A DNA stretch of 64,000 nucleotides from Andreprevotia chitinilytica DSM 18519 (GTDB lineage: Bacteria > Pseudomonadota > Gammaproteobacteria > Burkholderiales > Chitinibacteraceae), in contig NZ_JONM01000001.1 in assembly GCF_000711875.1 (NCBI RefSeq), positions 163,934-227,933 on the forward strand. Direction: 5' to 3'. Positions 44,967 to 63,141 of this stretch are shown piece after piece (position 1 is the stretch's first letter; every line of letters begins with the position of its first letter). Made by a program: the position numbers and the translations under genes. The notes beneath the pieces are model-generated. The model saw only the letters and a program-made list of their open reading frames with translations, searched no databases and was not told where the DNA came from.

Positions 44967-44984
44967 GTGCCAACCATGCCCTGT

Positions 44985-45639: not shown

Positions 45640-45672
45640 AAGGCCGACTCGTTCGGCCTTTTTTGTTGCTCG
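45640..45672 (+). terminator. rho-independent terminator
   Basis: aaaaaggccgactcgttcggcctttttt. Confidence 0.75.
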
Positions 45673-45942: not shown

Positions 45943-46206
45943 ATGGCAAAGCGTCTGCAAGACCAAACGGCGGTGTTCATCGTGCGGATCTGGTGCGAGG
46001 AGCGCGAAATCGAAAATGCCGCCGGTGAATGGCGTGGCGTTGTCGAGCATGTGCGTTCCAATCAGCGCATGTTTTTCCGCACGCTGGAAGGTATGTCGGC
46101 CTTCATGCAGCCCTTTCTTGAGGAAGTCGGCATCGCGCCGCAGGACCGCTGGTGGGAAGGGGTGGAAGACAGCCTTTCGCTGCCGCCGGGCGAGCAGGTG
46201 GAGTGA
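45943..46206 (+). CDS. hypothetical small protein (first gene of protease-rich cluster)
   Basis: ATG 45943 inside GTG ORF 45904..46206. Confidence 0.4.
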   Translation: MAKRLQDQTAVFIVRIWCEEREIENAAGEWRGVVEHVRSNQRMFFRTLEGMSAFMQPFLEEVGIAPQDRWWEGVEDSLSLPPGEQVE

Positions 46207-46224
46207 TCGCAAGTCATTGAATGA

Positions 46225-49200
46225 ATGACTGTTGCCCAGCAGGAGATTGGCATGGCACTGATTCGCGCAAACCGGGAAACGGTTGATGACCGTTTCTCCA
46301 TCGTCGGCTTCACCGTCCGCACCGGGCCCAATCCTCTGTTCGAGGTAGCGGTCGCCAGCGACCCGGAGCTGTTCAAGCCCGAAAACCGTGCCAAGCGCGG
46401 TCGCAACAATTTCTATTCCAGCCGGGCCGCCGGTGCGATGCGCGCCCGCCGTGGCGAGGCGGTCTATCTGATTCCGCCCGATGTGCTCACGCATTTCGTG
46501 GGGAACAAGCGGCTTTACTTCGGTTTGGCGACCTATGCGGAAGGCAATCGCGCCGAGCCGACCTCGGTACAGGCCCCCACCACCGGTAGTCCGTTCATCA
46601 ATATCGCCGGGCTGACTGGCCGTGGCCTGCGGCGTTTGACATCGAGCCCGACCGACGTGTCGTCGAGTTACGGCGCAGCACGCGGTGAAGATTCCAGTCT
46701 GGCTTGGGGCGGTGATCGGGGTGGTGCCCAAGGCGGCAATGTCCCCACAACGGCGAGCCCCGATACACGTCGTGCAGCGGCAGATGGCCGGGCTGCGCAG
46801 AGCCCCGCCAATGGCGCAGTCAACGGCAGCTCCGCGGTCAACGGCCATACGGCGAGCAGCGCCGCGTCTCGTACCACACCGTCCGCGCCCGACGCGCACT
46901 ACGACGATGGCTTCGATCATCGGCTCTGGCAACAAGCACCGCAGCAAGCACCGCAACAGTCACCAACCCAGCAAGCGCCAGCCCCGGCCCCGACCGCTTC
47001 GGCCCCGGCTGCGCCAACGGCAAGTTCGTCCGCACCTGGGCCGGCTCACGCGCAAAGCCTTGCCTATAACGGCAAGCCCACCGCCCGGCCGCTTGATCTG
47101 ATCGTGCCGTCCAACCAGCCAACATTGTGGGATCAGCTCGGTTTCCTGCGCGATAGCTTGTCCTGGTTCTTCGGCGTCACCGACACCACCGTCTACCCGC
47201 AACACGCCATCTGCCAGATTCGCCGGCCGACGGCGGGCGGGGGGGATGAGCATGTCGGCACGGCGTTCTATGTTGGCCGCAATCGCTTGCTGACCGCCGC
47301 GCACGTGGTCGAGGGCGAAACCAATCTGATCGTCGTGCCCGGCCGCAACGACACCGCCGAGCCCTTCGGTCGCTATACCGTTGCCGCCAGCAGTTTCCGC
47401 ATTCCGGCCAGCCGCAACACCGCCAACCACGATTTCGATATCGCCGTGCTGGACAACACGCCGCAGGCCGCGCCGAACGGTCGTTGGTTCGATTTGATGG
47501 AAGAGCTGCTCACCTCGCAGCCCAGCCCGATCATCGTTTGCGGCTATTCATCGCAATCGCGCCGCGTGCCGCAGATCAACAACCTGATCAACGAAAACAA
47601 GCAGCACCTGCATTCCGGCCGCATCCAGACCGTGCAGGACAACACCTTTTCCTACGATATCCAGACGCTGGCCGGGGCCAGTGGCGCGCCGGTGTACTAC
47701 ATCACCGACAACGGCGGCCAGCCGCAAATCCACCTCGTTGGCGTGCACGTCAGCGGCCTATCCGATACCGAAAACCAAGGCACGCGCCTGACTGAAGCCA
47801 AGATCGCCTGGATCGAAGGCCGCACCACCACGCTTGGGCTGGCAACGGCTCGTGCGCAAAGCATTCCGCTTGATCCCGGCGCGGGCGGCCAGTCGATCGG
47901 CGTAGCCGCGCTGCAGGCCGGCGACATCATCGTGTCCACCACCGACCACGCCACGTCGTACCTGATCCGTGGCGGCAGCATCTCGGCGGTTAGCCACGCC
48001 ATGCTTTATATCGGTGACGGCAAGGTGGTCGAAGCAGTCGGGCAGGGCGTGATCGAGCATCCGCTGGCCGATGCGATCAGCGATGCCATCCTCGCCGTGG
48101 CCTTCCGCTATCCGAATCTGGACGATATGCATCGCCAAGCCGTCGTCAGCTATGCCCGCAGCCAGGTCGGCTTGCCCTACAACTACGCCGGCGCAGCCTA
48201 TGCCGGTTACCGCATCTGGAACCCGATTACCCGCATTGGCGAATGGATCGGCCAGCGGCTGTCGGTTGCGCCGGAAAACGCCGGTTCGTTCTATTGCTCG
48301 CAACTGGTGCTGGAAGCTTATGCCCGTGCCGGCGTGGCCCTCACCACCGAAGCGCCGGATGTCAGCACGCCGGGCGATATCGTCCAGCTCACGCATAGCG
48401 TGCTGAGCTATGTCGGCCATCTGGTCGCCAGCGATTCGTCGTTCGCACTGGCGCTTGCTACCACCGATCCCATCCAACCCAGCCCCTACCGTCGGCGCAT
48501 TCGCCACCCGGCCAGAGCATTGGATGACAGCTCGTTCCGTGTGTATTGGGGCGATGTGCCGTTCCAGCAGCAAAGCAGCACTGGCTCGTGCTGGGCGGCG
48601 GCGGCGGCCATGATCGTCGGTTGGCGCGACAGCACCTGCATCAGCGATCAGGACATTGCTGCCAAGGTGCCGGTGGTGGATGCCTACCTCAATGGCCTGT
48701 GGCCACAGGATCGGCATGTGCTGGCGGATGTGTGGAATCTGGTGGCCGAGCCGCCACAGTCGTACACGCTCGATGGCTTCCGGCAGTTGCTCGCCAACAG
48801 CGGCCCGCTGTGGGTCGCCACCCGCACCCGCTCCGGCGGCGGTCACATCCTGCTGGTCATCGGGATGGAAAGCGATGGCGCGGCGGATGGCTCCGATACC
48901 AATGTGCTGATCTATGATCCGTGGCCCGGCTCGGCGGGTCGCCAGCGCATGCGTTGGCTTGACTTCATCACCCGTTATGAAGGCCGTGCCACCAGCACAG
49001 GTGGCGTGATGCAACCCCAGATCCTGCACGCCGACGGCACGCAGGGCCGCCAGCAAGCGACGGCCGCACCATTCGGGCTGGTCTCGGCGCTGGGCACGCC
49101 GTTCTCGGTGTTCTGGAGCGATGTGCCGTACACGGCGCAGACCAGTGGTATGTCGTGCTGGGCGGCTTCGGCTTCGATGGTGGTGGGCTGGCGTGACCGG

Positions 49201-50283
49201 ATTTCGATCAGTGATCAGGATATTGCCGCCAAGGTGCCGGCCATCGATGCCTACCGCAACGGCCTGTGGCCGCGTGACCGGCAACCGCTGGCGGATGTGT
49301 GGAACCTGATTCCCGAGCCGCCGCAAAGCTACACGCTGGATGGTTTCCGGCAATTGCTCGCCAGCAGCGGCCCGCTGTGGGTCGATTCGCAATTTCCACA
49401 AGGCGGGCACGTGGTCGTGGTGGTCGGGATCGAAAGCGGCGGGGCGGATGATGGTTCCGATACCACCGTCTACATCCATAACCCCGATCCCGGCTCTGGC
49501 CAGCGGGTGAAGATGTCGTGGCAGCAATTCGTGCAGTACTACGAAGGCCGCGTCAGTACCGAAGGCAGCACGCTCAGCGCGCAATTGCTCCATGCCAACG
49601 GTTTGGGCGGTCGCACGCCGGCCACGGTGGCACCGTTCGCGCTCACGCTATCGGCCAATCAGGCCAATACGCTGGACAAGACCCGGCATCAGCGCACCCG
49701 TCCCGCTCGTCCCCAGCAAACGCCACAATCGCCCCAGCATGGCGGGGCGCGGGTCAACGGTTTGACGGCAGCGGGCTTGACGGTGAGCGGCACGGATGCT
49801 GAAACGACGATTTCGCCGTCCCACGTGCCCGGCACGACCATGAGTGCGGTGACCGGCAGCGTTGGCAACTTGTCCTGGCGGCTGGAGCAGTTGCAGGGCT
49901 TCAAATCGCCAGCCGGCCAGCCGAGTGTCACCTCCGCCGCGCCGGATCACGCCGAAGTCCCGCTCGACGATTGGCCGCGCCTGTCCGATGGCCCGGTGCC
50001 GATCAAATTGGCAGTGCGCTGGCAGCACAACGGCAGCGCGCTCGGCAATGTCACGGTCGTGCGCACCGATCAGGCCGACAGCCTGCCGTACCAGCTGCAG
50101 GTGGAAGCCGCCATCGACGACGACACGCTGACCTATCCGCCGCAAGCCCCGCGCTATGCCGCGCTGAACGTGACCATCACCTACCGCTTCAGCAACCTGC
50201 CGGATGGCGCGGCGACTGCCGTCACGCAGCTCAAGCTGTATGGCAACGGCACGTTCGAACGCCACGGTTCCTGGCTGAAATAG
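46225..50283 (+). CDS. 1352-aa multi-domain protease
   Basis: Layout: N-terminal domain, P/A/Q linker, trypsin-like S1 (TAAHVV; GASGAPVYY), permuted papain/NlpC-like module (SFYCSQLVLEAY), two C39-like Cys-peptidase repeats (TGSCWAAAAAMIVGWRD; SGMSCWAASASMVVGWRD), C-terminal domain. Confidence 0.75.
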   Translation: MTVAQQEIGMALIRANRETVDDRFSIVGFTVRTGPNPLFEVAVASDPELFKPENRAKRGRNNFYSSRAAGAMRARRGEAVYLIPPDVLTHFVGNKRLYFGLATYAEGNRAEPTSVQAPTTGSPFINIAGLTGRGLRRLTSSPTDVSSSYGAARGEDSSLAWGGDRGGAQGGNVPTTASPDTRRAAADGRAAQSPANGAVNGSSAVNGHTASSAASRTTPSAPDAHYDDGFDHRLWQQAPQQAPQQSPTQQAPAPAPTASAPAAPTASSSAPGPAHAQSLAYNGKPTARPLDLIVPSNQPTLWDQLGFLRDSLSWFFGVTDTTVYPQHAICQIRRPTAGGGDEHVGTAFYVGRNRLLTAAHVVEGETNLIVVPGRNDTAEPFGRYTVAASSFRIPASRNTANHDFDIAVLDNTPQAAPNGRWFDLMEELLTSQPSPIIVCGYSSQSRRVPQINNLINENKQHLHSGRIQTVQDNTFSYDIQTLAGASGAPVYYITDNGGQPQIHLVGVHVSGLSDTENQGTRLTEAKIAWIEGRTTTLGLATARAQSIPLDPGAGGQSIGVAALQAGDIIVSTTDHATSYLIRGGSISAVSHAMLYIGDGKVVEAVGQGVIEHPLADAISDAILAVAFRYPNLDDMHRQAVVSYARSQVGLPYNYAGAAYAGYRIWNPITRIGEWIGQRLSVAPENAGSFYCSQLVLEAYARAGVALTTEAPDVSTPGDIVQLTHSVLSYVGHLVASDSSFALALATTDPIQPSPYRRRIRHPARALDDSSFRVYWGDVPFQQQSSTGSCWAAAAAMIVGWRDSTCISDQDIAAKVPVVDAYLNGLWPQDRHVLADVWNLVAEPPQSYTLDGFRQLLANSGPLWVATRTRSGGGHILLVIGMESDGAADGSDTNVLIYDPWPGSAGRQRMRWLDFITRYEGRATSTGGVMQPQILHADGTQGRQQATAAPFGLVSALGTPFSVFWSDVPYTAQTSGMSCWAASASMVVGWRDRISISDQDIAAKVPAIDAYRNGLWPRDRQPLADVWNLIPEPPQSYTLDGFRQLLASSGPLWVDSQFPQGGHVVVVVGIESGGADDGSDTTVYIHNPDPGSGQRVKMSWQQFVQYYEGRVSTEGSTLSAQLLHANGLGGRTPATVAPFALTLSANQANTLDKTRHQRTRPARPQQTPQSPQHGGARVNGLTAAGLTVSGTDAETTISPSHVPGTTMSAVTGSVGNLSWRLEQLQGFKSPAGQPSVTSAAPDHAEVPLDDWPRLSDGPVPIKLAVRWQHNGSALGNVTVVRTDQADSLPYQLQVEAAIDDDTLTYPPQAPRYAALNVTITYRFSNLPDGAATAVTQLKLYGNGTFERHGSWLK

Positions 50284-50304
50284 CCAGCTTGAGCGGCCCG
50301 AATC

Positions 50305-51423
50305 ATGAACCCGCGCCTCGTCCCGCCGCCACCACCCACCCAGGGTGGAGCGGCGACTGCGCAAGCCTTGAACGCCGTCGACATGCTGTCCCAGCGTCTG
50401 GGCGGCAGCCAGAGCGACGGCAGTAACAGCGCAGCTGCGCCAACGCCGAGCCCCGCAGCACCCGTACCCGCGCCGGCACCGACGCCAGCCACCACCACCT
50501 CGCCCAAGCAGCCGGCCACGGAAACCATCGCCCACCGCACTGGCGCAATGGTCAACGAGATCGATTTCCCCGGCTTTGTGGCCGGTCTGGTGCATGGCAC
50601 TTTCGATGCCATCGTCGATGCCTCGATCCGGCAGATGGAAAGCTTCTCCGGCCTGGTGTCGGCGGTCGCCAAGACCGTCGACCAGTTCACCGAGGAAAAC
50701 GTCACGCTCAATCAGGCGCGGGACTGGCTCACCAGCCACTATCCCGGCGACGTGCATCTGGTGCTGTCCAGCGACCCGGCCATCGGCCCGCAACTGGCTC
50801 CGGCGCGAGAAGGCTTGTCCCCGGCGTGGCTAGCGGACTTCGATCTCGAAGGGAACGAACTCACTACTGAGCTGTTGGAGAACCAGTTGCTGCCTATCGT
50901 GCGCAGCCGCACCGGTGCGGATCGCCAACAACTGCTGGCAACGATGGTGCTGCTCGGCATGAACCGCGTGGCGGTCAAGGATGGTTCGATTTCGGCCAAG
51001 GTGATGTTCCGCGCCAGTGCGGAGGATTCCGCCAAGGTGTCCTACGCCACCAGCAACGACCCGCAAGGCGTCGCCAATTGGGGCGAGCGGGGCAGCCTGT
51101 CTTATAGCGGCGGCGCCAGCACGATGGTGTCCACCCTGGGTGTGAACGCGCAGAACGATTCATCGATCAAGACCGATCTGCTGGGCGAAGTGAAGATCAA
51201 TTTCGTCAGCGAAACCTTGCCGCTCGACCGCCTGATGGATCAAGCCAAGATCGCGCTGCTGCAACGCAATTCCCGCGTGGCGGAAACCGCCAACCGGGGT
51301 TTGAATGCGCCTGCCCCAGCCGCCGCGCCAGCACCACAAGCCGCATTGCCACCGGCCGCTGCGCCGGTCGCAACACCGACCGCCCCGGCCCCCGCCGCAG
51401 TACATGAAGGGAGGCCAGCCTGA
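50305..51423 (+). CDS. unknown family, paralog A (372 aa): conserved helical core + beta segment + Pro/Ala-rich tail
   Basis: shares FPxFVxGL(I/V)xG(V/T)FxxIVx(S/A)SIxQMExxxxLV, RQQLLATMV(M/L)LGxNR(I/V)(V/A)VxDGxIxAKV, E(V/I)(K/R)(I/V)NF(K/V)S(D/E)(Y/T)LP(L/M) with 57983, 59369, 61717 genes. Confidence 0.7.
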   Translation: MNPRLVPPPPPTQGGAATAQALNAVDMLSQRLGGSQSDGSNSAAAPTPSPAAPVPAPAPTPATTTSPKQPATETIAHRTGAMVNEIDFPGFVAGLVHGTFDAIVDASIRQMESFSGLVSAVAKTVDQFTEENVTLNQARDWLTSHYPGDVHLVLSSDPAIGPQLAPAREGLSPAWLADFDLEGNELTTELLENQLLPIVRSRTGADRQQLLATMVLLGMNRVAVKDGSISAKVMFRASAEDSAKVSYATSNDPQGVANWGERGSLSYSGGASTMVSTLGVNAQNDSSIKTDLLGEVKINFVSETLPLDRLMDQAKIALLQRNSRVAETANRGLNAPAPAAAPAPQAALPPAAAPVATPTAPAPAAVHEGRPA

Positions 51424-51860
51424 TGATCCGCGAACTCTCCGCCGTGCTGCTGGAAATGCACAACGCGCTGCAGTCGGAACTCAACCTGGCTCGCGACGCT
51501 GGCGTGCCGCTGTTGCTCGATAGCGTCGAGCTGACCTTGCCGATGCAATTCCAGAACGTGTTTGCCGATGGCCAATGCCTGCTGTGCGCCGACGTGCCGC
51601 GCACGCTCGATCCGGGGGGCTTTGATTTGCCGCTGGGGCGGATGCATGCGCGGTGGGAGCGGGTGGATGGGGAAGATGAGGATTCAACACCCAGCTTGGG
51701 CATTCCCCCCTTCCTCGAAGGGGGGGGAGGGGGGATTTCTGCGCCTTCTCAAGTTGCCACTGCATCTGAACTTGGCACTGTGTCGAAATCCCCCCCACCC
51801 CCCTTCACAAAGGGGGGAGTAACAACGTTCGCTCCAGCAAGGAGGCCCGGCCATGAGTAA
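51423..51860 (+). CDS. hypothetical protein; 3' third of ORF is occupied by a REP/MITE copy
   Basis: ATGA overlap with upstream gene; REP family B 51703..51830 lies inside ORF so true C-terminus uncertain. Confidence 0.4.
   Translation: MIRELSAVLLEMHNALQSELNLARDAGVPLLLDSVELTLPMQFQNVFADGQCLLCADVPRTLDPGGFDLPLGRMHARWERVDGEDEDSTPSLGIPPFLEGGGGGISAPSQVATASELGTVSKSPPPPFTKGGVTTFAPARRPGHE
51703..51830. repeat. REP/MITE-like element, family B (second copy of 27468..27565)
   Basis: ccccccttcctcgaaggggggg ; ggggggatttct..gcgcc..tcgaaatccccccc. Confidence 0.6.
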
Positions 51861-52794
51861 TGCCATCCCTCCACTGTTGCAGCAACAAGGCGTGCCGTTC
51901 GATGTCTTCATCCAGTCGCTGACCGATCAGCTCGACAAGGCGCAGGCGTCGATGGCGCTCAAGGCGCGGGTCGGCAAGTTGCCGCTCACCTTCGCGGTCA
52001 AGGAATTGACGCTCGATCTGAAGGCCTATGTGCAGATCGTCGATGACGACATCTATTTCCGCCCGGCAGCACCCGGTGATACCGATGCCAGCACCGTCAA
52101 ATTCAGCCTCACCACCATCACCAAGCCGATGATCGAAGAGAACTCGGTCGATTTCGCCGCGCAGCAAAAGCACTTCGATGTCAGTCTCAAGGACGGGCTG
52201 GGCGACAGCATCAATGCCGATGAGCAACGCCGGCTGGAGCGCATGGGCGTGCAGACGATGTCGCAGCTCAATGATTTGCGCAGCCGCGCCGGCGATGACG
52301 TGATCGCCCGCATCACGCGCGTGCCGGTCAATCGCCTGCAAGCCGCATTGATGCGCGCCGCCGCGCCGCAGGTCATGCATGTCGAACCACACCTCAATGC
52401 GCCGAGCGGGGATGCGGCGATGGCGCCTGGCAATGGCCAACTCAATGGTTCATTGATGGGTTCCTCGGTGGGTCCAATGGTCTCTGCCAACCTTAACCCG
52501 CAATCCGTGCCGCCGAATTCGCCGCTGTTGCGTTTGCGTGGCCTCAATTTGCTGCGGGGCGGGCGGCCGCCGCAGGTGCAAGCCGCAGGCGGCAATGTGC
52601 CCGTGCTGGCCGCCAGCGACAGCGAATTGCTGATCTCGCCGCATGCCATGCAACTGGGCTGCGAAGCGGAGCTGACCTTTGATGACGGCGCACGCTGCAC
52701 GGCGCAGTTGCCGCCGCCGGTCCCGCCGCCGATCATTCAGCCCTCGGCACAAAGTCGCCCGCAATCCCCGTCACAGGGGGCTCGCCATGTTTAG
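51853..52794 (+). CDS. hypothetical protein (313 aa), Pro-rich C-terminus
   Basis: ATG 51853 (overlaps previous ORF end by 8 nt); overlapped at 3' end by S8 gene start. Confidence 0.5.
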   Translation: MSNAIPPLLQQQGVPFDVFIQSLTDQLDKAQASMALKARVGKLPLTFAVKELTLDLKAYVQIVDDDIYFRPAAPGDTDASTVKFSLTTITKPMIEENSVDFAAQQKHFDVSLKDGLGDSINADEQRRLERMGVQTMSQLNDLRSRAGDDVIARITRVPVNRLQAALMRAAAPQVMHVEPHLNAPSGDAAMAPGNGQLNGSLMGSSVGPMVSANLNPQSVPPNSPLLRLRGLNLLRGGRPPQVQAAGGNVPVLAASDSELLISPHAMQLGCEAELTFDDGARCTAQLPPPVPPPIIQPSAQSRPQSPSQGARHV

Positions 52795-54328: not shown

Positions 54329-54349
54329 TTGCCGTGCCATCCGCAACCC

Positions 54350-54380
54350 CGTAGCCCGGACGACGCCGTCGGCCGGGGTT
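54350..54380. repeat. REP family C half-site
   Basis: cgtagcccggacgacgccgtcggccgggg. Confidence 0.45.
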
Positions 54381-54430
54381 TGCGCCACCAATCACGCCGC
54401 TGTACCTGCTGATATCGCCGGAGGTTCGTC

Positions 54431-56437
54431 ATGACCAACCCCAAAAAGAAACCGGGCGCAGACGCGGCAGAGAACACGCCGGCCAATGCCGATCCACCCT
54501 CCGCCGGGCCAGCGCCTCCAGCGGAACAGGTGCCCAGCGCGCCAGCCGCTGCAGCCAGTGCCACACCCGGCAGCAGCCAACCGAACGCCCCGCCCGGCGG
54601 GAAACCGCCGCCGGCAAGCCCGGCGGATCGCAGTAACAGCAATATGGAAACCCAAAGCGGTGGAGGGAATGGAATCATGGAAGCACCCAAACAAGTGTTG
54701 TTGTTCGTCGATCTGAGCCAGTCGGAATTTCTCGCCAGGGCGCGTTTGCGCGAGCGGCGGCAGCTGCTGGAGAACATTGCCACCCACCGCAAGGGCGGGT
54801 TGGGCAGCGATGAATCCGACGAATTGACGGAAAAGCGGTTGCTGCTGGGCAGCAATACCTCGGTCGATCCGTTCTTCCTCGCCATTGTGGACGGGCATGC
54901 CGGTTCGCAAGCCGAAGGCGAGAACGAAGCCAAGATGGTGCATGGCGTACTGCCGACTTCGCAGCCGCGCTGGTATCGCGAGCATCCGAACTGGAACGGC
55001 GAAATGATCCGGGTGCAAAACGGCCCCGATATCGCCGTGGCCGCGGCCGAGCTGGAACTGGTCGCGATTGCAGGCCTGATGGAGATGGACAACTTCCTTG
55101 ACCCGGCCAACCCGCGCTTCGTGCAGCAGGTTTCGGTGGCACAGGGGGAGTATCGCGCCAATCGGGCCTTGTTCCAGCGGGTGTTCGAGCTGCTGGTGCT
55201 CAACAGCGTGCCGGTGACGCTGGATAGCCAGATCGCGCTCAAGCTGGTCGATCCGGCCGCGACGGATGCGTTGCACAACGCCAATATCACTGCCGATATG
55301 CTCAAAGCAGTGATTGCGCTCAGCGCCAAGCAACTGGGGGCGGTGGTGCGGCAGATCGCCGCCGATGGCATGACCGCCAACGACCGCCAGTTGCCGGATC
55401 GCGTGCGGGTGGCGCTGGAGAACGTCTCCGGCATGGACCAGGGCGCGCCGCCGTCGGCGATCGAAATCGATTTGCCCGATCTGGAAGCCCAGTCGGACGT
55501 CGAGATCGTCGAATCCAATCTGCATGCGGTGCAGGCGCTGTATTTCTCCTACATGCTCGAAGAGCTGCGGCTGTTCCAGACGGTGGAGAAACTGGTCGAT
55601 CTGTTCCGTACCGGCATGCTGCCGATCGGCAAGGGCGGCGCGGGCGATTACCTCTACAGCTACCTGAAGCGTTCCAGCGAGCGGATGAACGAGAGCGAGC
55701 GGCGCGATCTGTATATGCGGGCCTTCGGTGCGCCCGGCGGCGATCCGAACACCAATATGCCCAATCGCGAGTTCAACGAGCTGTGGCTGCGTTTCGTCTC
55801 GGCCGTGTCGTCCTATGTGCGTCAGTTCACCGTCGACAACATGCTGCGCAGCCAGGCGCCCGGCATGGTCAGTCAGGAACAGGTACGCAAGGCCGGCCGC
55901 GATCTGGCCGCCAATCTGTCCTTGCACGGCTACGGCATCGCCTACTTCGCCGCCACCGAGCTGCAATCGACCATCCGCGAGTTCATCGGTGTGCTGTCGG
56001 ATCAGGACATCAAGGGCTCGTTCGGCGCCCGCGATATGTGGCAGGTGGTCGAGCAAGTCTCTGCCAGCTACCTGGGCGGCCCGCGCAACAGCGTGCGTTA
56101 CCGCACGCAGGCCCAGTCCGGCGCGGTGATCATCCGCTGGCTGGCCAAGAACGCCCGCAATCTGTCGTCCAGCTATGTGAACGACGTGATCGCCATCGAC
56201 GTGCTGCGCAGCCCGCAGCTACGCAGCCTCGGCGGCGGCAAGGCGACGGTGGACCCGACCGATTGGGATCTCGTCAACGCTTGCGAGCAATGGCTGGCCG
56301 TGGGCGGCATCCAGGAGGCGCGCATCGACGAGTACTCGCAGCCGACCGAAGCGCCGAATACCACCTCGAAGCCGATTGCCTTGCCATCGGTCGCGCAGGA
56401 TGTGCTCGATTCGGTGGGGATCAGTATTGGGGCGTAG
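54431..56437 (+). CDS. hypothetical protein (668 aa) with Pro/Ala-rich low-complexity N-terminus
   Basis: ATG 54431; no recognisable motif. Confidence 0.55.
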   Translation: MTNPKKKPGADAAENTPANADPPSAGPAPPAEQVPSAPAAAASATPGSSQPNAPPGGKPPPASPADRSNSNMETQSGGGNGIMEAPKQVLLFVDLSQSEFLARARLRERRQLLENIATHRKGGLGSDESDELTEKRLLLGSNTSVDPFFLAIVDGHAGSQAEGENEAKMVHGVLPTSQPRWYREHPNWNGEMIRVQNGPDIAVAAAELELVAIAGLMEMDNFLDPANPRFVQQVSVAQGEYRANRALFQRVFELLVLNSVPVTLDSQIALKLVDPAATDALHNANITADMLKAVIALSAKQLGAVVRQIAADGMTANDRQLPDRVRVALENVSGMDQGAPPSAIEIDLPDLEAQSDVEIVESNLHAVQALYFSYMLEELRLFQTVEKLVDLFRTGMLPIGKGGAGDYLYSYLKRSSERMNESERRDLYMRAFGAPGGDPNTNMPNREFNELWLRFVSAVSSYVRQFTVDNMLRSQAPGMVSQEQVRKAGRDLAANLSLHGYGIAYFAATELQSTIREFIGVLSDQDIKGSFGARDMWQVVEQVSASYLGGPRNSVRYRTQAQSGAVIIRWLAKNARNLSSSYVNDVIAIDVLRSPQLRSLGGGKATVDPTDWDLVNACEQWLAVGGIQEARIDEYSQPTEAPNTTSKPIALPSVAQDVLDSVGISIGA

Positions 56438-56467
56438 AGGGCCGCAACGAGACCGTGAACAGGCTCT

Positions 56468-56575
56468 TAGTCCCCTCGCCCCCTTTAGGGGGAGAGGGTT
56501 AGGGAGAGGGGGCGGTTGATCAACCAGCCACCCTCACCCCCAGCCCCTTTCCCAAAAATGGGCGAGGGGAGAAAA
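56468..56575. repeat. REP cluster family A (two copies)
   Basis: tcccctcgccccctttagggggagaggg ... ccctttcccaaaaatgggcgaggggag. Confidence 0.55.
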
Positions 56576-56606
56576 GCAGGATCGGCGGCTCACAGGAGAC
56601 TCAGCC

Positions 56607-57659
56607 ATGCCAGACCTCTACAACACCCGACAGCCAATGGCGCGTCATGTCGAGCGCTCCATCACCAATGCCGCGCGCCATTTGCACGTGAGCAATCCGC
56701 TCAATTTCGTGGGCGACATGGTGAAGCGCACCTTCGCGCTGCCGGACGACGATTCGTCCTACGGCAACAACGCGCTCACGCCCGGCGCAGTGCCGTTCGA
56801 GCCGTCGTTCTCGGAGCAAGAGCCGAACGCGCTGCGTTTCACCATTGAACCGCTGGGGCCGCACGCGTCGCCGTCATCGCGCCGCGACGAAGCCACCCGC
56901 GAAATGCGGCGGCTGATCAACGGCGTCTTCGGGCGCGATGCCTTGCGCTGGTTCGATACCCGCAGCGAAGAATGGCGCGGCATGAATGGCCTGAGCTGGA
57001 TGAACTACGGCGCGTGGTTCGGCAGCGCCTTCGATGAGGACGGCCTCTACGCCGCCAAGATTTACTACGAGCTGCTGCCGTCGCAAATCGATGCGCTGTC
57101 GCAAGGTACGGCGCGGATCACGCGTTTGGCCTGCGCGATCATGCCCAGCCTGATGCCGATCTTTACCTCGATTGGTTGCAAGCGCGAGGCCGGCAGCCAG
57201 CGCGTGACCTTTCTGCACCGGGGGCCGTTGTCGCTGACTGATCTCAGCCCGCTGATGAACCAGCTGGGCATCGGCCACCAGTTGCCAGGCCTGATGCGCG
57301 TGGTCGGGCTGGCGCTGGGCGGCCGCTTTGAATTGCCACATGGCACGGTGCTGCTTGGCCTGCGCGAGACGCACGAAGGGGTCGAGCTGAAACTGGAAAT
57401 CCTGCTTGCAGCGCTACCGGACGTGCCGGATGGTTTTCTCGATCTGGTGCGACTTGGTTTGGCGGAACGGCCACGCCAACTGGGGGCGCTGGAGCGCTGG
57501 CTGGATGCGTTCGGGGTGGATGAGGCGGGCACGGAAGGGAATTTCTCGGTGCTCAGCATCCGCGTCACGCCGCGGACTTCGGCGCGGATCAGTTTGTATG
57601 TGCGGCCGCTGGAGTTCGAGATTGGCGGGCAGATTGAGGAAAGCCGGCAGATGGCTTGA
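56607..57659 (+). CDS. hypothetical protein (350 aa)
   Basis: ATG 56607 after REP; no motif recognised. Confidence 0.5.
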   Translation: MPDLYNTRQPMARHVERSITNAARHLHVSNPLNFVGDMVKRTFALPDDDSSYGNNALTPGAVPFEPSFSEQEPNALRFTIEPLGPHASPSSRRDEATREMRRLINGVFGRDALRWFDTRSEEWRGMNGLSWMNYGAWFGSAFDEDGLYAAKIYYELLPSQIDALSQGTARITRLACAIMPSLMPIFTSIGCKREAGSQRVTFLHRGPLSLTDLSPLMNQLGIGHQLPGLMRVVGLALGGRFELPHGTVLLGLRETHEGVELKLEILLAALPDVPDGFLDLVRLGLAERPRQLGALERWLDAFGVDEAGTEGNFSVLSIRVTPRTSARISLYVRPLEFEIGGQIEESRQMA

Positions 57660-57784
57660 GCGGGCAACGGCAAAACCGCAAATCCTGAACCACAGAGGGC
57701 ACAGAGGTTCACAGAGAAAACCAACCTCAAATCACACGTAAGAACAAGGAGCGTGCGCAGAGAGCGGATGAAAAACGAGGTTTT

Positions 57785-57860
57785 CTGTAGGAGCGAGCTT
57801 GCTCGCGATGGGCGCGCATCAATTCACGATGCAATCGCGAGCAAGCTCGCTCCTACAGAA
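57785..57860. repeat. REP-like palindrome, family D
   Basis: ctgtaggagcgagcttgctcgcgatgg..atcgcgagcaagctcgctcctacag. Confidence 0.65.
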
Positions 57861-57982
57861 ACCTTCTTGCTGGCCGCTTGGTTTTCATCTGTGTTCTCTG
57901 TGCCCTCTGTGGTTCGAGGTTTGGGTTTTGAAATTTCGGTTTTTGCTTGAGTAATGCCCCGCATCGCGCAAGGAAACACATC

Positions 57983-59353
57983 ATGACCATGAATACCGCC
58001 GCCTCCCGCTATCCCGCGCCACCCGCACCAGCCCGGGCGCAGGCCGTCGCCGTCAGCCAGGAAACGCAGGATCAGGCCCGCATCAGCGTGCGCCAACTGC
58101 TGGAGCGCAGCCCGGCCTACGGCAGGCTCGATCACGGCACGCAACGGCAGCTGGCGCATGATCTGGTGAAAATCAGCAGCTATCTGGCCGAGCCGGAAGG
58201 GCAACGCCTCGCCCCAAGCCAGACCGCCCCGGCGGTGCGTGCGCTGGCCGAGAATGTCTCGATGCAAACCGATAGCAGCAATACCAACAGCGACGGCAAA
58301 TTCGTGGCGCAGGGCGCACGTGAAGGGGCGGCGGTGGCTGGCGCGTTGCTGAACGCGATCAACTTCCCCGAGTTCGTGTCTGGCCTCATCAATGGCGTGT
58401 TCCACTCCATCGTCACCTCGTCGATCCAGCAGATGGAGGCCTACGCCAAGCTGGTGGCGGATGTCTCCAAGAGCCTGAACCAGTTCCGCGATGACAACGT
58501 GTCGGACAATCAGGGGCGTGATCATCTGGTCGATCAGTATCCCGATCTGTTCCAGATCACCGTCAACAACGACTTCGGCGGCGGCTTCGGCAGCGATTCC
58601 GGTGGTCCGCCACCGGGGCCGCGTTGCACCCTGCGCGATGGCGTGGACGAGCAAAGCGCGCTGAGCCGCGTCAATCAGATGCCCATCGATGGCGGCCCGC
58701 TGCGCAGTCTGGACGACGACACCGTCGAGCAAAAGCTGGTGCCGGCCGCCCGTACACAACTGGCCACCAGCCGCCAGCAATTGCTGGCAACGATGGTGAT
58801 GATGGGCATCAACCGCATCGTGGTGACCGACGGCAAGATCTCCGCCAAGGTCATGTATGACTTCAAGGCGCAGGACAACATGAAGTTCCGCCAGAGCGCG
58901 CAGCGCTTCGATTACGGCGACCAGTACAGCACCACCAGCAGTGGCAACATGGAAAGCAATACCCAGGGCGCGCAAAGCTCCAGTTCGTCCGGCAGCGATG
59001 GCTCGTCGCAACAGAGCAATCGCGATGCGAGCTATTACTCGAAGGGCACCTACAACACCACCTCGCAGCCGGTGCTCAAGCTCGCCAGCGCCTCGCAGAC
59101 CGATATCAATGCCGACCTGAGCACCAAGGCATCGCTGTCCGGCGTGGTGGAAGTCAATTTCAAGAGCGATTACCTGCCGCTGGACAAGATGGCCGACCCG
59201 GCCGCGATTGCCGCCATCCAGATGAACGCCCAGCCGGGCATGGCGAAAACGACTGCCGGTACGCGCGCGCCTGCGCCCGCAGCAACCCCGGCTGCCGCAC
59301 CAGCACCCGTACCCGCGCCTGCCGCTACACCGGCCGCCCCGGCTGCGCACTGA
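57983..59353 (+). CDS. unknown family, paralog B (~456 aa)
   Basis: ATG after AAGGA RBS (MTMNTAAS) inside ORF 57947..59353; same conserved blocks as 50305 gene; S/Q/N-rich insert; ends PAAPAAH. Confidence 0.65.
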   Translation: MTMNTAASRYPAPPAPARAQAVAVSQETQDQARISVRQLLERSPAYGRLDHGTQRQLAHDLVKISSYLAEPEGQRLAPSQTAPAVRALAENVSMQTDSSNTNSDGKFVAQGAREGAAVAGALLNAINFPEFVSGLINGVFHSIVTSSIQQMEAYAKLVADVSKSLNQFRDDNVSDNQGRDHLVDQYPDLFQITVNNDFGGGFGSDSGGPPPGPRCTLRDGVDEQSALSRVNQMPIDGGPLRSLDDDTVEQKLVPAARTQLATSRQQLLATMVMMGINRIVVTDGKISAKVMYDFKAQDNMKFRQSAQRFDYGDQYSTTSSGNMESNTQGAQSSSSSGSDGSSQQSNRDASYYSKGTYNTTSQPVLKLASASQTDINADLSTKASLSGVVEVNFKSDYLPLDKMADPAAIAAIQMNAQPGMAKTTAGTRAPAPAATPAAAPAPVPAPAATPAAPAAH

Positions 59354-59368
59354 CGGAGGAACGGCATC

Positions 59369-60724
59369 ATGCACAGCGCCACGCCCGGTTATGGGCGGTC
59401 TGATCCCCCATTCGGTCCCCCCTCTGATCCCCCGTCTGATCCGAAGGGGAGGAGGAGCGAGCACCTGCCTGACCACCGGCCGGCGTGGCTGGATGACGAC
59501 ACGCTCGCTGTCGTGCGGCCACAGGTGCGCAAGTTGCTGGAAGCCTCGCCGGGTTTTCAGGCGCTGGCCGATGAAAAGAAGCGCGATATCGCCCGGCAGA
59601 TGGTCAATGTCGCCGCCTATATGGCGAACCCGGATGGCCTCGCCAAGCGCGAGCTGACGCCGGGCCAGAACGTGGTCGAGCAGCCCGGTGTGCTGGCCCG
59701 CCAACAGGATGCGGTGGACGATGCCAAGGCTGCCGCATCCAAGGAAGTCGGCAACTTTGCCGGCAAGGATTTCCAGGCCGGTGCGGTGCAGCAGGGTGTA
59801 CAGCAGTTCGGCGAGCTGGTGCAGAAGGTGGACTTCCCGCTGTTCGTGGCCGGGTTGATCCATAACGTGTTCGAGGCCATCGTCAATTCGTCCATCAAGC
59901 AGATGGAGGCCTACGGCAAGTTACTGGCGAGCGTGTCGCAATCGGTGGCCGATTTTGCCCGCGACAATATTTCGCAAAACAATGCGCGGGATTGGCTGAT
60001 GCAGAAATATCCGGATCAGCTCGGGCTGGATACCTCGTCGGCCGATAGCGGCGGCAGCAATGGCCAGCCTGCCACGCCACGCCTGACCGCCAGCGGTGAC
60101 GATCCGTCGACCTTCCTCAAGACGCTGAGCACCGAGTTCGGCATGAGCAAGCCGGTGGATGATCTATCCGACCCGGAGCAGGAAGGGATGCTGGTGCAGG
60201 CGGCACAGGTGCAGATCGCCAAGAGCCGGCAGCAGTTGCTGGCATCGATGGTGATGCTGGGCATCAACCGCATCGTCGTGACTGACGGCATGATCCACGC
60301 CAAGGTGATCTTCGACCTGAAGGCGAGCGATCAGGCGCAACGGCAGGCGCGGGCATCGTTGTATGACCGCAATGCCAGCCGCAACGTCAATACCAGTGTG
60401 GCCGGTGGCGGTTGGGGCTTCTTCGGTGCAGCGACCGCCAACCAGAATGTGCAGGACCACGTGACGACGGTGCAGTCGTCGGTGGACGAAACATCCGAAT
60501 CGAAGGCGGAAGTGAAAGCCAACCTGACCGGCGAGGTGCGGGTGAATTTCAAATCCGACTATCTGCCGATGGAAAAGATGGCGACGCCGCAGATGATCGC
60601 GTCGATCCAGGGCAATGCCACGCCGTACGATCCGAACAACCCGAACGCGCACAGGCCGGGTGCGGCACCTGCCGCTGCGCCAGCTGCAGCCGCCCCGGCA
60701 CCGCAACCGGCTGCCGCGCATTGA
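59369..60724 (+). CDS. unknown family, paralog C (451 aa)
   Basis: GGAGGA RBS + ATG 59369; conserved blocks; ends QPAAAH. Confidence 0.7.
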   Translation: MHSATPGYGRSDPPFGPPSDPPSDPKGRRSEHLPDHRPAWLDDDTLAVVRPQVRKLLEASPGFQALADEKKRDIARQMVNVAAYMANPDGLAKRELTPGQNVVEQPGVLARQQDAVDDAKAAASKEVGNFAGKDFQAGAVQQGVQQFGELVQKVDFPLFVAGLIHNVFEAIVNSSIKQMEAYGKLLASVSQSVADFARDNISQNNARDWLMQKYPDQLGLDTSSADSGGSNGQPATPRLTASGDDPSTFLKTLSTEFGMSKPVDDLSDPEQEGMLVQAAQVQIAKSRQQLLASMVMLGINRIVVTDGMIHAKVIFDLKASDQAQRQARASLYDRNASRNVNTSVAGGGWGFFGAATANQNVQDHVTTVQSSVDETSESKAEVKANLTGEVRVNFKSDYLPMEKMATPQMIASIQGNATPYDPNNPNAHRPGAAPAAAPAAAAPAPQPAAAH

Positions 60725-60736
60725 AGGCGGGTCGCT

Positions 60737-61720
60737 ATGGGCACGCAGATGCACCCCGACCACGACGACCGCATTGCCGCACGGCTGCATCGCGCCCTCG
60801 GCTTCGCGCAGTGGCGGCTTGGCTTGCGGCCCGCGCCGGCCGGTGCTCAGGCGCTGGATGCGCTCGACCCGGTGGATTTACCACCTGATGTCTCTGACCC
60901 GCAGCAGATCGCCTCGCTGGAAGCCGCCGGACCGTTGTATCTGGCGCGTGAACTCGAATCGGCTCAGCTTTTGCCGGCCGTGGAGCTGATTACCGGCTTG
61001 TTCACCGGCGGCACCATCAACCAGTCGCTCGGCAATGTCGGCCAGAAATTGCTCGGCTTCTGGCGCACCCGCCACCAGCGGCTTGGCCCGACCGAGCGGC
61101 AAACACTGTTCGCCCACGTATTCGAGGAGCCGGCGTTTACATCATTGATGCAGGCCCTGTGCACGCAAATGGCCAGCACGATGAACGCATGGCAGCCCCC
61201 CATCTGGCAGCCGCATGGCTATGGGCAGATTGGCGTCGGGCTGGCGGGGATTGGCGTATCGCAAGCGGCGCAGGCGGTGGCGGATTTTCTGGCGGGGCGG
61301 CTGGCCGGCATGGCGACCTACGCCGCCGGTGAATTGATACAGAACATCCGCGACGGGGTGGAAGTCCTGAAAGCGCCGGAAGTGCAGACTGCCTTCAACG
61401 TGCGCGGCATGTGGGCGCTGGTGGCCCTGGTGGCGAATCAGCGCGGGCTGGATGCCTCGCAAATCCATGCCCATGTCGAACGCGGGCAGGCAGGCCAGCT
61501 GATCCTGACCTGGTTGGCCCAGGCCGCCCACACCAACAACTACACGCTCGATCCGCACGATGCGCGGTCTCAGGCGGTGATCAATGCGGCGGCGACCTGG
61601 CTGGTGCAAGTGCCCGGTGATACTCAGGTCGGCAGCGCCCAGACCACGGTCACGACGAGCACCGCGCCCCCGCCCGCAGTGCCGGCCGTGCCGTCGATGG
61701 TGGGAAGCATCGGCGTATGA
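60737..61720 (+). CDS. hypothetical protein (327 aa)
   Basis: ATG 60737; ATGA overlap with paralog D start. Confidence 0.5.
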   Translation: MGTQMHPDHDDRIAARLHRALGFAQWRLGLRPAPAGAQALDALDPVDLPPDVSDPQQIASLEAAGPLYLARELESAQLLPAVELITGLFTGGTINQSLGNVGQKLLGFWRTRHQRLGPTERQTLFAHVFEEPAFTSLMQALCTQMASTMNAWQPPIWQPHGYGQIGVGLAGIGVSQAAQAVADFLAGRLAGMATYAAGELIQNIRDGVEVLKAPEVQTAFNVRGMWALVALVANQRGLDASQIHAHVERGQAGQLILTWLAQAAHTNNYTLDPHDARSQAVINAAATWLVQVPGDTQVGSAQTTVTTSTAPPPAVPAVPSMVGSIGV

Positions 61721-63141
61721 ACGCGCCGCTGCAGCCGGCCGGCATCGCTGCAACGCCGCCGGGGTGGCTGCGTCAGGCGGTGCGCGATCATTTGCAGAGT
61801 ACGAAAAGCTATCAGGACATGGCGGCGGACAAACGCCGTGAACTGGCGCATGCGATGGTGCGGGTGTCGCAAACGGCGGCGCAACTGATCGATGAAGAAC
61901 GCCGGGCGAGTGAACATATCGAGGCGCAGCAACCCCGCAAGCCGCCCCAACCGCTGGCACGTGCGCAAGACGCGCCGGGCTTCGGCGCGGCGACCGATCG
62001 TTTGGCATCGACCACGCAAAGCGTGCTGAACGCGGTGTCGTTTCCGCGCTTCGTCACCGACCTCATCAATGGCGTCTTCCGCGCCATGCTCGATTCCACC
62101 TCGCAGCAGATGCAGATGTATGTGCAACTGCTGAACAACGTCTCCGCCTCGCTGGATGGTTTTTCCGGTACCCAGTTCAGTAACGACGGGGCGCGGCATT
62201 GGCTGGCGGATCACTTCCCGGATGCATTCCAGATCGACAACGCCGATTCCACCGACCCGGACAATCCGCCCGAACTGAATTTGCGCGACGGGGGGCGCAT
62301 GCCGGATCAGGAGGCGCTGCGGACCGTATTCGGCATGGAGCCGACCGACACCATCGACGCTGGTAATCCGGAACAACTGGTGCCGCTGGCCCGCCGCCAG
62401 ATGGCGCGGCAACGGCAGCAGATGCTCTCCACGATGGTGATGATGGGCATGCAGCGCATCGTGGTGGATAGCGGCAAGATCAACGCCGCCATGCACTTCC
62501 ACATCGATACGCGCAGCGCAGCGCAGAACGATAGCAGCAACAGTTTCAATTTCCAGAACAAGGTGTCGGCCAGCGGCAGCTTCGGCGTCGGGCCGTGGGG
62601 GGCGAGCGCCTCGGTGGAAAACACCATCGGCTATGTCTCGACGCAGCGCTCGCAGAGCACCGAGGAGATGAACACCGATCTGGATCTGAGCTCGTCAGTG
62701 GAAATCAATTTCCGCAGCGATTACCTGCCGCTCAACCGCATGGCGGCACAGGCACAGGCTGACCGCATCCGCGCCAATACCATCAACCCGGATGCGGAAG
62801 CCGCAGCGTTGGCGACCGAGCGTCAGGCCCGGCATGCCTCGGACGTGCAGTCTGATACCGCGCGCCGGCAGACGCTCACCGATGCGAGCGCTGCGCCGCG
62901 GCCGTCGACGCCGCCACCACCGGCAGCAGGCGCGCCACGTCCAAGTCCTGCGACTACGGGCCCGACGCCGACACCAGCGGGTGGCCCCGCGCCAACGAGC
63001 GGACCACCGCCGACCGGCAGCCCAGCGTCAACCGGTGGCCCGACCCCGACGGGTAGCCCCTCAGCAACGCCCGCTCACTCGCCGACCAGCCCGTCGCCTA
63101 CGCCATCAGCAACGCCTGCGCCAGTGACGGGGGCGCATTGA
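61717..63141 (+). CDS. unknown family, paralog D (474 aa) with long Pro/Thr/Ser/Gly-rich tail
   Basis: conserved blocks FPRFVTDLINGVF, RQQMLSTMVMMGMQRIVVDSGKINA, EINFRSDYLPL; ends VTGAH. Confidence 0.7.
   Translation: MNAPLQPAGIAATPPGWLRQAVRDHLQSTKSYQDMAADKRRELAHAMVRVSQTAAQLIDEERRASEHIEAQQPRKPPQPLARAQDAPGFGAATDRLASTTQSVLNAVSFPRFVTDLINGVFRAMLDSTSQQMQMYVQLLNNVSASLDGFSGTQFSNDGARHWLADHFPDAFQIDNADSTDPDNPPELNLRDGGRMPDQEALRTVFGMEPTDTIDAGNPEQLVPLARRQMARQRQQMLSTMVMMGMQRIVVDSGKINAAMHFHIDTRSAAQNDSSNSFNFQNKVSASGSFGVGPWGASASVENTIGYVSTQRSQSTEEMNTDLDLSSSVEINFRSDYLPLNRMAAQAQADRIRANTINPDAEAAALATERQARHASDVQSDTARRQTLTDASAAPRPSTPPPPAAGAPRPSPATTGPTPTPAGGPAPTSGPPPTGSPASTGGPTPTGSPSATPAHSPTSPSPTPSATPAPVTGAH

Follow-up and report, generated by a model that had tools for sequence, protein, structure and literature searches.

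What holds together a run of twelve same-strand genes in which several kinds of peptidase lie beside a family of paralogous proteins without annotation? The question is raised by a 64,000-nucleotide stretch of the genome of Andreprevotia chitinilytica DSM 18519 (contig NZ_JONM01000001.1; hereafter the window, whose coordinates are used throughout). An earlier note on this DNA had described twelve co-directional genes at 45943-63141, and all of these plus-strand open reading frames (ORFs) are present as described. We label them g1 to g12; with the gene for a Streptomyces antibiotic regulatory protein (SARP) upstream of g1, they form a unit of 13 (Table 1). Two proteins of the window are 100% identical to WP_211251625.1 and WP_035051730.1. 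Judged by gene order and sequence in related genomes, the region is one copy of a self-contained, horizontally mobile 13-gene system.

The first line of evidence is recurrence. With an alignment of the four paralogs (g3, g9, g10 and g12, family X below) as the query, a scan of one genome per species found about 240 relatives among 185,579 species representatives, and gene order was checked by tblastn with the window proteins in the 80 loci that were retained. In every locus that is long enough, g2-g3-g4-g5-g6-g7-g8-g9-g10-g11-g12 lie on one strand in the same order; with metagenome loci added, this strict g2-g12 synteny holds in more than 100 loci in total. Such recurrence puts the arrangement far beyond chance. 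The hosts are Pseudomonadota of the beta, gamma and alpha groups (Chitinibacteraceae, Lysobacteraceae, Burkholderiales, Nevskia, Aliikangiella, Bradyrhizobium), Cyanobacteria, Acidobacteriota, Chloroflexota and Chthonomonadales. Identity to the window proteins is 51-75% for g8, the most conserved protein of the system, 50-74% for the X paralogs, 40-56% for g7 and g6, and 28-55% for g5, g11 and g4. Gene-for-gene retention from Betaproteobacteria to Cyanobacteria, Acidobacteriota and Chloroflexota, together with this level of protein identity, points to strong selection on the machine. The earlier note had taken the proteases and paralogs to belong together in a dedicated multi-component system, and had named loss of co-localisation in related genomes as the outcome that would speak against it. 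In the neighbourhood comparison, paralogs, S8 protease and multi-protease stay together across phyla, so that objection falls away and the grouping stands.

An exhaustive HMMER search for family X gave 2012 clusters at 50% identity, and g10 has more than 1746 homologs, every one annotated "hypothetical." The divergent members that we inspected all lie in the same type of cluster. Variants include one with just three X genes and others in which the last X is fused or extended: it is joined to a class-I S-adenosylmethionine methyltransferase in P0309, P0317, P0381 and L164 (10001-12115; CMAS/PrmA-like in the last), and in L166 (10001-13216) it is lengthened to 1071 aa. In the Burkholderia pyrrocinia replicon NZ_CP091309 (L083), an annotated example of the sigma54 clade described below, the X, Y, g5 and g8 homologs are all labelled "hypothetical protein." Right after the cluster in that genome (31991-36588) lie genes for a 1151-aa protein with an adenylate/guanylate cyclase domain and a patatin-like phospholipase, a pair that recalls signalling-activated effector systems.

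The idea of an accessory island, also put forward in the note, is borne out by this patchy but mobile behavior: there are about 240 matches in the scan and the flanks vary. No conserved genes were found downstream of g12 beyond clade-level neighbours. The GC content of the cluster is 0.62-0.66, compared with 0.56-0.59 in the 8 kb upstream, a difference that fits horizontal acquisition. The window contains no tRNA gene.

The unit also extends upstream of g2 in a conserved way. In a metagenome scan centred on g3, with loci extending 10 kb upstream, the arrangement SARP-g1-g2, all three in the plus orientation, recurs in about 20 loci, with SARP orthologs that are 41-49% identical. It follows that g1 is a real conserved gene and that the SARP gene (43887-44966) belongs to the system, of which it is a conserved first gene in one clade. 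The protein has the composition of a SARP, an OmpR-type winged helix-turn-helix plus a BTAD domain (Pfam BTAD, E 7e-23, 82 bits; Trans_reg_C, E 7.7e-6, 26.3 bits versus a cut-off of 26.2), and repeats with 11-bp spacing lie at its predicted target promoter. This set of four GTGA-N7 repeats is unique in the window, where it precedes the g1 ATG by 83 nt; 100 shuffles gave 0 matches. Each of 20 related loci likewise has a single copy, in every case 60-110 nt before g1. Direct repeats with 11-bp spacing are the established SARP operator architecture (ActII-ORF4, DnrI, AfsR), and we regard the element as the probable SARP operator and promoter of the operon. The SARP and LysR genes that were said to bracket the cluster are both there, as Pfam confirms, but the unit includes the SARP gene as well as g1 and is not bordered by them.

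Secondary-metabolite clusters are classically switched on by pathway-specific SARPs that act at heptad operators, and those clusters share with this one the domain pair and the 11-bp direct repeats just upstream of the first structural gene. Unlike them, this locus has no recognisable antibiotic pathway, its host is a betaproteobacterium and not an actinomycete, and in another clade a sigma54 activator stands in for the SARP. There, SARP and g1 are replaced by a 320-aa activator, PspF-like in having an AAA+ domain and a helix-turn-helix alone, and a DUF3467 protein; g4 is absent as well, and in three of six such loci the DUF3467 gene is preceded by GG-N10-GC promoter-like sites. The g1 orthologs are 30-58% identical, stand directly upstream of g2 in 23 loci and share the motif FIVRIWxE...WRGxVEHV. 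No relatives of g1 were found in Pfam or the PDB, and a diverged DUF3467 was ruled out (hhalign probability 0.1%).

In other loci the spacer between the SARP gene and g1 is about 200-500 bp. In the window, insertions separate the SARP gene from the operator: a pair of repetitive extragenic palindromic (REP) elements, a microsatellite and a small secreted-peptide gene with its own terminator. The microsatellite (45083-45163), beside the REP pair at 44984-45058, is a perfect heptanucleotide tract, (CACACCT)13 or nearly so, and is absent from the related loci inspected; being slippage-prone, it could affect read-through or local structure. The small gene (45393-45663) is a 67-aa ORF with a signal-peptide-like start, MKKLATVIATVGFLGAMGAAQA, followed by a strong hairpin and T-run terminator (45636-45663).

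Among the structural genes, g2 encodes the largest set of enzymatic modules. A constant N-domain (aa 1-165) is followed by a Pro/Ala linker, an S1 domain (339-519), a C92 domain (558-655), two C70 modules (about 770-930 and 964-1106) and a constant C-domain (1190-1352). The S1 domain (Pfam Trypsin_2, aa 345-491) exceeds the cut-offs of two trypsin families (40.5 versus 27.6 bits and 33.5 versus 20.6 bits), and its triad columns hold His in 55 of 55 orthologs, Asp in 51 and Ser in all 55. Peptidase_C92 (PF05708, aa 563-655) is matched at 37.8 bits against a cut-off of 27, whereas NLPC_P60 stays below its own (17.7 versus 23 bits). PF12385 covers two stretches at 240.4 bits against a cut-off of 19, which places both in Peptidase_C70/AvrRpt2, and the nucleophile motif S/T-C-W is kept in 49 of 50 orthologous modules. 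In the window, the C70 pair arose by a 285-nt tandem duplication (48533-48817 and 49100-49384, 78% nucleotide identity); many orthologs have only one module. The earlier inventory of a trypsin-like, a permuted-papain/NlpC-like and two further Cys-peptidase modules therefore holds, except that the last two had been called C39, and C39_2 is a weaker match than Peptidase_C70. Across orthologs, the N- and C-domains are always present and the middle varies, with zero to two trypsin, zero to two Amidase_2, zero or one C92 and zero to two C70 modules. The N-domain is 41% identical to that of a Burkholderia ortholog (E 2e-27). It also occurs on an unrelated body in a second protein encoded upstream of the SARP gene in one locus (L156, 3291-4658), a reuse that fits a docking module. 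No relatives of the N- or C-domain were found in Pfam or the PDB.

The second peptidase, g6, was correctly described as an S8 subtilase with a long N-terminal extension. Peptidase_S8 (PF00082) is matched with an E value of 5.6e-39 (134.6 bits versus a cut-off of 21.8), and the DTG, HGT and GTSxAxP motifs occur in order in 53 of 56 orthologs. Its extension of about 180 aa is pro-region-like, and three orthologs match Peptidase_S8_N weakly in it.

The most conserved protein, g8, was revealed by its predicted fold. An AlphaFold (AF2) model built from 39 homologs (pLDDT 75, pTM 0.74) shows the repeated alpha-beta-beta-alpha (H-E-E-H) units of the ABBA barrel; this model and that of g10 discussed below both rest on shallow alignments. 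Foldseek against the PDB placed CymD first (E 1.2e-11, TM 0.70), followed by FunA, DMATS1, PriB, IptA, FgaPT2 and TleC; there were 89 matches at E <= 1e-3, and all 50 listed are prenyltransferases. By sequence family the protein stays below threshold (Trp_DMAT, 18.9 bits versus 25; TIGR03429, 17 versus 163.85), with weak in-register Trp_DMAT matches in 18 of 27 orthologs. Invariant in these 27 diverse orthologs are E65 (PxExS), R77 (RFTIEP), K151, Y153, R199, Y331 and R333, and the invariant Lys, Tyr and Arg residues occupy alternate positions on predicted strands. In a profile search of the PDB, PxE65xS...R77FTIEP aligns with the motif of the prenyltransferase AuraA, a short match and the sole significant one. 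Among these residues may be the equivalents of the barrel-lining catalytic Glu and diphosphate-binding Arg, Lys and Tyr of FgaPT2 (E89, R100, K187 and Y189). The model assigns g8 to the fold of DMATS-type (ABBA) aromatic prenyltransferases, with an apparently conserved pocket. ABBA/DMATS enzymes are Mg-independent ten-stranded barrels (PMC7839719). Like CymD, FgaPT2, PriB, IptA and FunA, g8 has about 350 aa, a (predicted) alpha-beta-beta-alpha barrel, PxExS and RFxxEP motifs, basic and Tyr residues on its strands and a weak in-register Pfam match. Unlike the known enzymes, it is only 12-19% identical to them, scores under the Pfam gathering threshold and lies in a context with no nonribosomal peptide synthetase, no terpene genes and no obvious aromatic small-molecule substrate. 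Its substrate may be a protein.

The remaining bulk of the system consists of two families without catalytic motifs. Members of family X are 28-37% identical in pairs, with more than 50 invariant columns, so the four paralogs reported earlier are real. They remain as unplaceable as they were then, with no matches to a characterised family in Pfam, NCBIfam, PADLOC, PHROGs, the PDB or phage genomes; a match of that kind had been the note's other reason for abandoning its proposal. Orthologs of g3 are 50-74% identical and keep the same position in all loci. Each of the four X paralogs is matched across loci by its own positional ortholog, which implies an old duplication and four copies that cannot stand in for one another. 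For g10, AlphaFold gave a poor model (pLDDT 62, pTM 0.36) with no fold match in a structure search. It predicts an N-terminal helical region, two long helices rich in invariant hydrophobic residues (FPxFVxGLIxGVF... and RQQLLATMVMLG...) and a beta-hairpin of 13+13 residues, in which polar and apolar side chains alternate strictly and whose tip carries a polar disordered loop of about 60 residues. The C-terminal tail of X is variable, disordered and rich in Pro, Ala, Thr and Gly. A CaaX-like signal at its end was considered and rejected: three window paralogs end in AH, but ortholog tails are variable and have no conserved end. Family Y comprises g11 and the C-half of g7 (about 340-668), related by BLASTP (E 2e-14) and hhalign (probability 100%, E 1.8e-65); no relatives of g7 were found in Pfam or the PDB. 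No protein of the system has a transmembrane-like or signal-peptide-like hydrophobic stretch (maximum KD19 1.71), in agreement with the note's remark that the paralogs lack signal peptides, and no NTPase domain was found in any of them.

A possible effector domain lies in g5. The domain named Trypco2, or Pepco, was first recognised in conflict systems, where it is encoded beside trypsin-like peptidases (Kaur et al. eLife 2020, PMC7159879). Pepco, of about 117 aa, has been shown experimentally to be a pre-assembled beta-barrel pore, which an adjacent protease activates by cutting off a C-terminal tail behind a conserved Ile (Evans et al. bioRxiv 10.1101/2025.11.14.688446; a table in that paper supplied our SsPepco sequence). 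The N-domain of g5 (about aa 1-97) is weakly matched by Trypco2 (PF19631) in 7 of 24 orthologs, at best with E 1.7e-4, and not in the window copy. At residues 87-97 it has a nearly invariant TTITKPMIEEN, including Ile94-Glu-Glu, at a distance matching the Pepco cut site: Ile-Glu-Glu stands just after the domain, and SsPepco is cut after Ile97. Whole g5 orthologs are fusions of 260-310 aa with matches to IPT/TIG (4 of 24, 2.5e-4) and DUF4332 (2 of 24); a profile search of the PDB gave nothing significant. The gene is in the same operon as g2, not adjacent to it. We treat the link between g5 and Trypco2 as a lead, not a finding. The small protein g4 is possibly a diverged Trypco2/Pepco-like domain too: one of 24 orthologs matches Trypco2 weakly (E 0.023), and hhalign against SsPepco gives a marginal E 0.0033 at a probability of 9.7%. 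That g4 is a paralog of the g5 N-domain is unsupported (hhalign probability 1.8%). It is absent from the sigma54, cyanobacterial and acidobacterial variants. Its orthologs have about 83 aa, and the window copy has a C-terminal extension of about 55 aa that no ortholog has; the extension comes from C-run/G-run REP-like hairpins (about 51700-51735 and 51790-51820) that the 3' part of g4 has absorbed just ahead of the g5 start, which overlaps it.

What could such a set of proteins do? Our tentative first choice, held with well under even confidence, is an inducible membrane- and cell-wall-attack module, for lysis or killing, that is licensed by proteases and a lipid transferase. The genes would be silent until the activator fires, the SARP here or the PspF-like sigma54 activator in the other clade. 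X and Y would then form a soluble hetero-oligomer of fixed stoichiometry, and the constant domains of g2 would dock it onto this complex. Inhibitory or disordered segments would be clipped by the subtilase and by the peptidases of g2, such as the Pro/Ala-rich X tails and the g5 tail behind the Trypco2-like domain, a step modelled on the protease-licensed Pepco, EACC1 and gasdermin pores. Meanwhile g8 would prenylate an aromatic residue of a component or make a prenylated cofactor, and the prenyl group is proposed to lend membrane affinity to proteins that have no hydrophobic segment. Once activated, the complex would permeabilise a membrane and so give the peptidoglycan hydrolase part of g2 access to the cell wall. 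The outcome would be lysis or killing, either suicidal (abortive or altruistic, releasing enzymes) or aimed at neighbouring bacteria.

Several observations suggest this. Strict synteny, the conserved operator, the sigma54-type promoters of the alternative clade and the conserved catalytic residues of the S1, S8 and C70 domains count in its favor. The fold of g8, the recurrent Trypco2 matches of g5 and the Amidase_2 and C92/NlpC-like modules of g2 fit the proposed steps, as do the amphipathic hairpin strands, hydrophobic helices and disordered tails of X. The patchy distribution, the variable flanks, the GC shift, the lack of any transmembrane segment or signal peptide and the second protein with a g2 N-domain in L156 suggest the same.

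Against this must be set that every step of the mechanism is one that we infer. Contact of X with the membrane is an assumption of the model, and the X fold itself is weakly modelled (AF2 pLDDT 62). All g5 Trypco2 matches fall below the Pfam cut-off, and hhalign of the N-domain with the SsPepco sequence is not significant. In PADLOC-DB v2 there are generic protease matches for g2 and g6 and none for X, Y, g4, g5 or g8. Anti-phage systems are seldom under such tight transcriptional control as a SARP or sigma54 activator exerts, the system has no evident immunity gene, a pore of Pepco size is too small for a 140-kDa enzyme, and g8 could instead make a small molecule. The "multi-enzyme toxin/defence module" mentioned in the earlier note is closer to the evidence than its shell reading (see below).

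Comparison with known systems places the attack module near several of them. The Pepco (Trypco1/Trypco2)-protease effector modules of prokaryotic conflict and antiviral systems (PMC7159879; bioRxiv 10.1101/2025.11.14.688446) pair a small Trypco2-like domain with a trypsin-like or cysteine peptidase, in some cases fused to peptidoglycan-related domains, and a latent membrane effector is licensed in them by proteolysis; the same may apply here. Those modules are two-gene pairs with a STAND, Avs or vWA-MoxR sensor NTPase. Here, in contrast, there is no NTPase, the Trypco2-like domain, of weakly supported homology, is fused to helix-hairpin-helix (HhH)-like and TIG-like domains, and the 13 genes include six X/Y proteins, a subtilase and a prenyltransferase. 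Bacterial gasdermin systems likewise combine, in an operon, trypsin-like and subtilase proteases with a pore-former (in our case a proposed one), which is kept inactive by a C-terminal segment and helped by lipidation. This locus has no gasdermin homolog, no PADLOC match and far more components, and gasdermin lipidation is palmitoylation, whereas we propose enzymatic prenylation. The alpha-pore-forming toxins (ClyA/Hbl/Nhe/AhlABC/Mak) resemble X in that an operon encodes three to four diverged paralogs, about 350-450 aa long, each predicted to combine long helices with a beta-hairpin and to work only jointly. X, however, matches neither HBL nor HlyE/ClyA in Pfam, has no fold similarity to ClyA/Hbl-type toxins and no signal peptides, carries the polar disordered loop of about 60 residues at its hairpin tip and is accompanied by proteases and a prenyltransferase.

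A stronger form of the attack-module proposal holds that X and Y are a new class of hetero-oligomeric membrane-attack or lysis complex that needs both a protease cascade and DMATS-type prenylation of a protein aromatic residue; we think this quite doubtful. If true, it would be the first dedicated bacterial system for prenylation of protein Trp, Tyr or His outside small peptides of the ribosomally synthesized and post-translationally modified (RiPP) class, and a new ATP-independent route for a large peptidoglycan hydrolase to the cell wall.

Of the other explanations, the one that survives best, though we still consider it unlikely, is a delivery or secretion apparatus of a new type, in which an X/Y conduit or carrier exports g2 as an antibacterial effector and the proteases and prenyltransferase mature the apparatus. 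The layout of g2 is that of a polymorphic effector, with a constant N-domain, shuffled toxic modules and reuse of the N-domain in L156. Lytic domains of the amidase, NlpC-like and S1 types are common among antibacterial effectors, as in the Tae/Tse effectors of type VI secretion and the lytic proteases of Lysobacter, and many hosts are lytic or chitinolytic Lysobacteraceae and Chitinibacteraceae. Moreover, the best NCBIfam model for g6 is the mycosin of type VII secretion (TIGR03921). However, the score is far below the cut-off (159.3 versus 278.75 bits), and g6 has no hydrophobic segment (maximum KD19 1.46) and so neither the signal peptide nor the C-terminal anchor of a mycosin. ESX/type VII loci also encode several paralogous substrates each, and X can be likened to EspB-type substrates, which are soluble and helical with disordered Pro/Ala-rich C-terminal tails; in contrast, this system lacks EccB, EccC, EccD, EccE and any FtsK-like ATPase, and its hosts are mostly diderm Pseudomonadota. 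No WXG or YxxxD/E motifs were noticed, though no search aimed at them was made. None of the 13 proteins is an ATPase or a membrane-spanning or outer-membrane component, none has a signal peptide, and none is similar to any secretion-system family in Pfam or NCBIfam; the missing immunity gene counts against export of g2 as well.

The reading favoured in the earlier note, a cytoplasmic self-assembling body (shell, nanocompartment, filament or inclusion) built of X and Y, matured by proteases and packaging g2 by its constant domains, seems to us improbable. It would account for two non-enzymatic paralog families of fixed copy number and order and for proteins that are all predicted to be soluble and cytoplasmic, and the constant domains of g2 could serve as cargo-loading signals. 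But X shows no fold or sequence similarity to HK97-fold capsids, encapsulins, pilins or other shell proteins. A capsid, encapsulin or phage origin found nothing in its favor in PHROGs, phage genomes, viral contigs or fold searches, and no viral contig or phage genome carries the family. The supposed cargo enzymes are peptidoglycan hydrolase types, which would have no substrate inside a cytoplasmic shell, and long disordered tails and a prenyltransferase are foreign to known shells.

A natural-product or RiPP-like cluster, in which g1, g4 or an X segment is cleaved by S8 and papain-like peptidases and prenylated by g8 under SARP control, is very unlikely: SARP and repeat operator are typical of secondary-metabolite control, DMATS-type enzymes work in secondary metabolism (PMC7839719) and g6 also matches the PatA/PatG cyanobactin protease model (80 bits, far below the cut-off), but g1 and g4 are conserved over their full length with no hypervariable core, g4 is absent in several clades, there is no transporter, cyclase or other tailoring enzyme, and the scheme has no role for the peptidoglycan-hydrolase modules or for the six large, conserved proteins that are not enzymes. 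What probability these four readings leave belongs to some other explanation.

Whichever holds, modules of known kinds (S1, S8, C70 and C92 peptidases, a SARP, the DMATS fold and possibly Trypco2) are combined here with a core (X, Y, g1 and the g2 docking domains) for which, as for the combination as a whole, no counterpart was found; the system appears undescribed. Within the coverage of the searchable corpus, no account of it turned up in the full text of open-access PMC and bioRxiv papers, and the claim of novelty is limited by that coverage and by the absence of confident structures for X and Y. Eight protein families are without annotation: X, Y, g1, g4, the g2 N- and C-domains, the g7 N-half and the g6 pro-region. 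For the DMATS-type family such a genetic setting is new, and three themes meet in the system, namely protease-licensed death effectors, cell-wall hydrolases as weapons and lipid modification of proteins. The SARP and its operator offer a ready genetic handle, and a bacteriolytic weapon, if that is what the system proves to be, would be a possible source of new lytic enzymes and a new delivery principle.

Table 1. Features of the 13-gene unit in the window.
Feature	Coordinates	Strand	Basis
SARP activator gene	43887..44966	+	Pfam BTAD + Trans_reg_C
Four GTGA-N7 direct repeats, 11-bp period	45824..45860	+	Pattern search
g1, 87 aa, conserved small protein	45943..46206	+	Positional orthologs
g2, 1352 aa, modular enzyme	46225..50283	+	Pfam
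g3, family X paralog 1, 372 aa	50305..51423	+	Paralog alignment
g4, small protein	51423..51860	+	Ortholog comparison
g5, Trypco2/Pepco-like N-domain (candidate), HhH-like middle, IPT/TIG-like C-domain	51853..52794	+	Weak Pfam matches of orthologs
g6, S8 subtilase, N-terminal extension of about 180 aa	52787..54328	+	Pfam Peptidase_S8
g7, 668 aa, C-half is family Y paralog 1	54431..56437	+	BLASTP, hhalign versus g11
g8, DMATS-type (ABBA-barrel) prenyltransferase homolog (predicted fold)	56607..57659	+	AF2 model, Foldseek
g9, family X paralog 2, 456 aa from ATG 57983; TTG 57947 also open	57983..59353	+	Paralog alignment
g10, family X paralog 3, 451 aa	59369..60724	+	Paralog alignment
g11, family Y paralog 2, 327 aa	60737..61720	+	BLASTP, hhalign versus g7
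g12, family X paralog 4, 474 aa, long low-complexity Pro/Thr/Gly tail	61717..63141	+	Paralog alignment

The genes are closely packed. Of the overlapping junctions listed in the earlier note, those of 8 nt at g4/g5 and g5/g6 and the ATGA at g11/g12 (61717) are as given, and the g3/g4 junction is TGATG (51421-51425), a 1-nt overlap, and not ATGA. The "five further hypotheticals" of that note number six (g1, g4, g5, g7, g8 and g11) and are not all plain unrelated proteins, since g7 and g11 are paralogs and g8 has a prenyltransferase fold. The candidate Trypco2-like domain of g5 and the modular variation of g2 had also escaped that description. REP elements do occur in the cluster as claimed: they lie between g7 and g8, between g8 and g9 and within the 3' part of g4. 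The two spacers, the sole large intergenic gaps of the cluster, are filled by two REP families (56467-56510 and 57785-57859); one family recurs at 3666, 8360 and 33055, the other at 20090-20161 and 44984-45058. Directly downstream of g12, on the minus strand (63145-63787), PIN-like (VapC) and Phd/YefM-like antitoxin ORFs were recognised by eye. Farther away, at 25882-26300, there are three direct copies of 62 nt (family D8) at a spacing of about 180 nt, probably because an unrelated gene there encodes a repeated domain.

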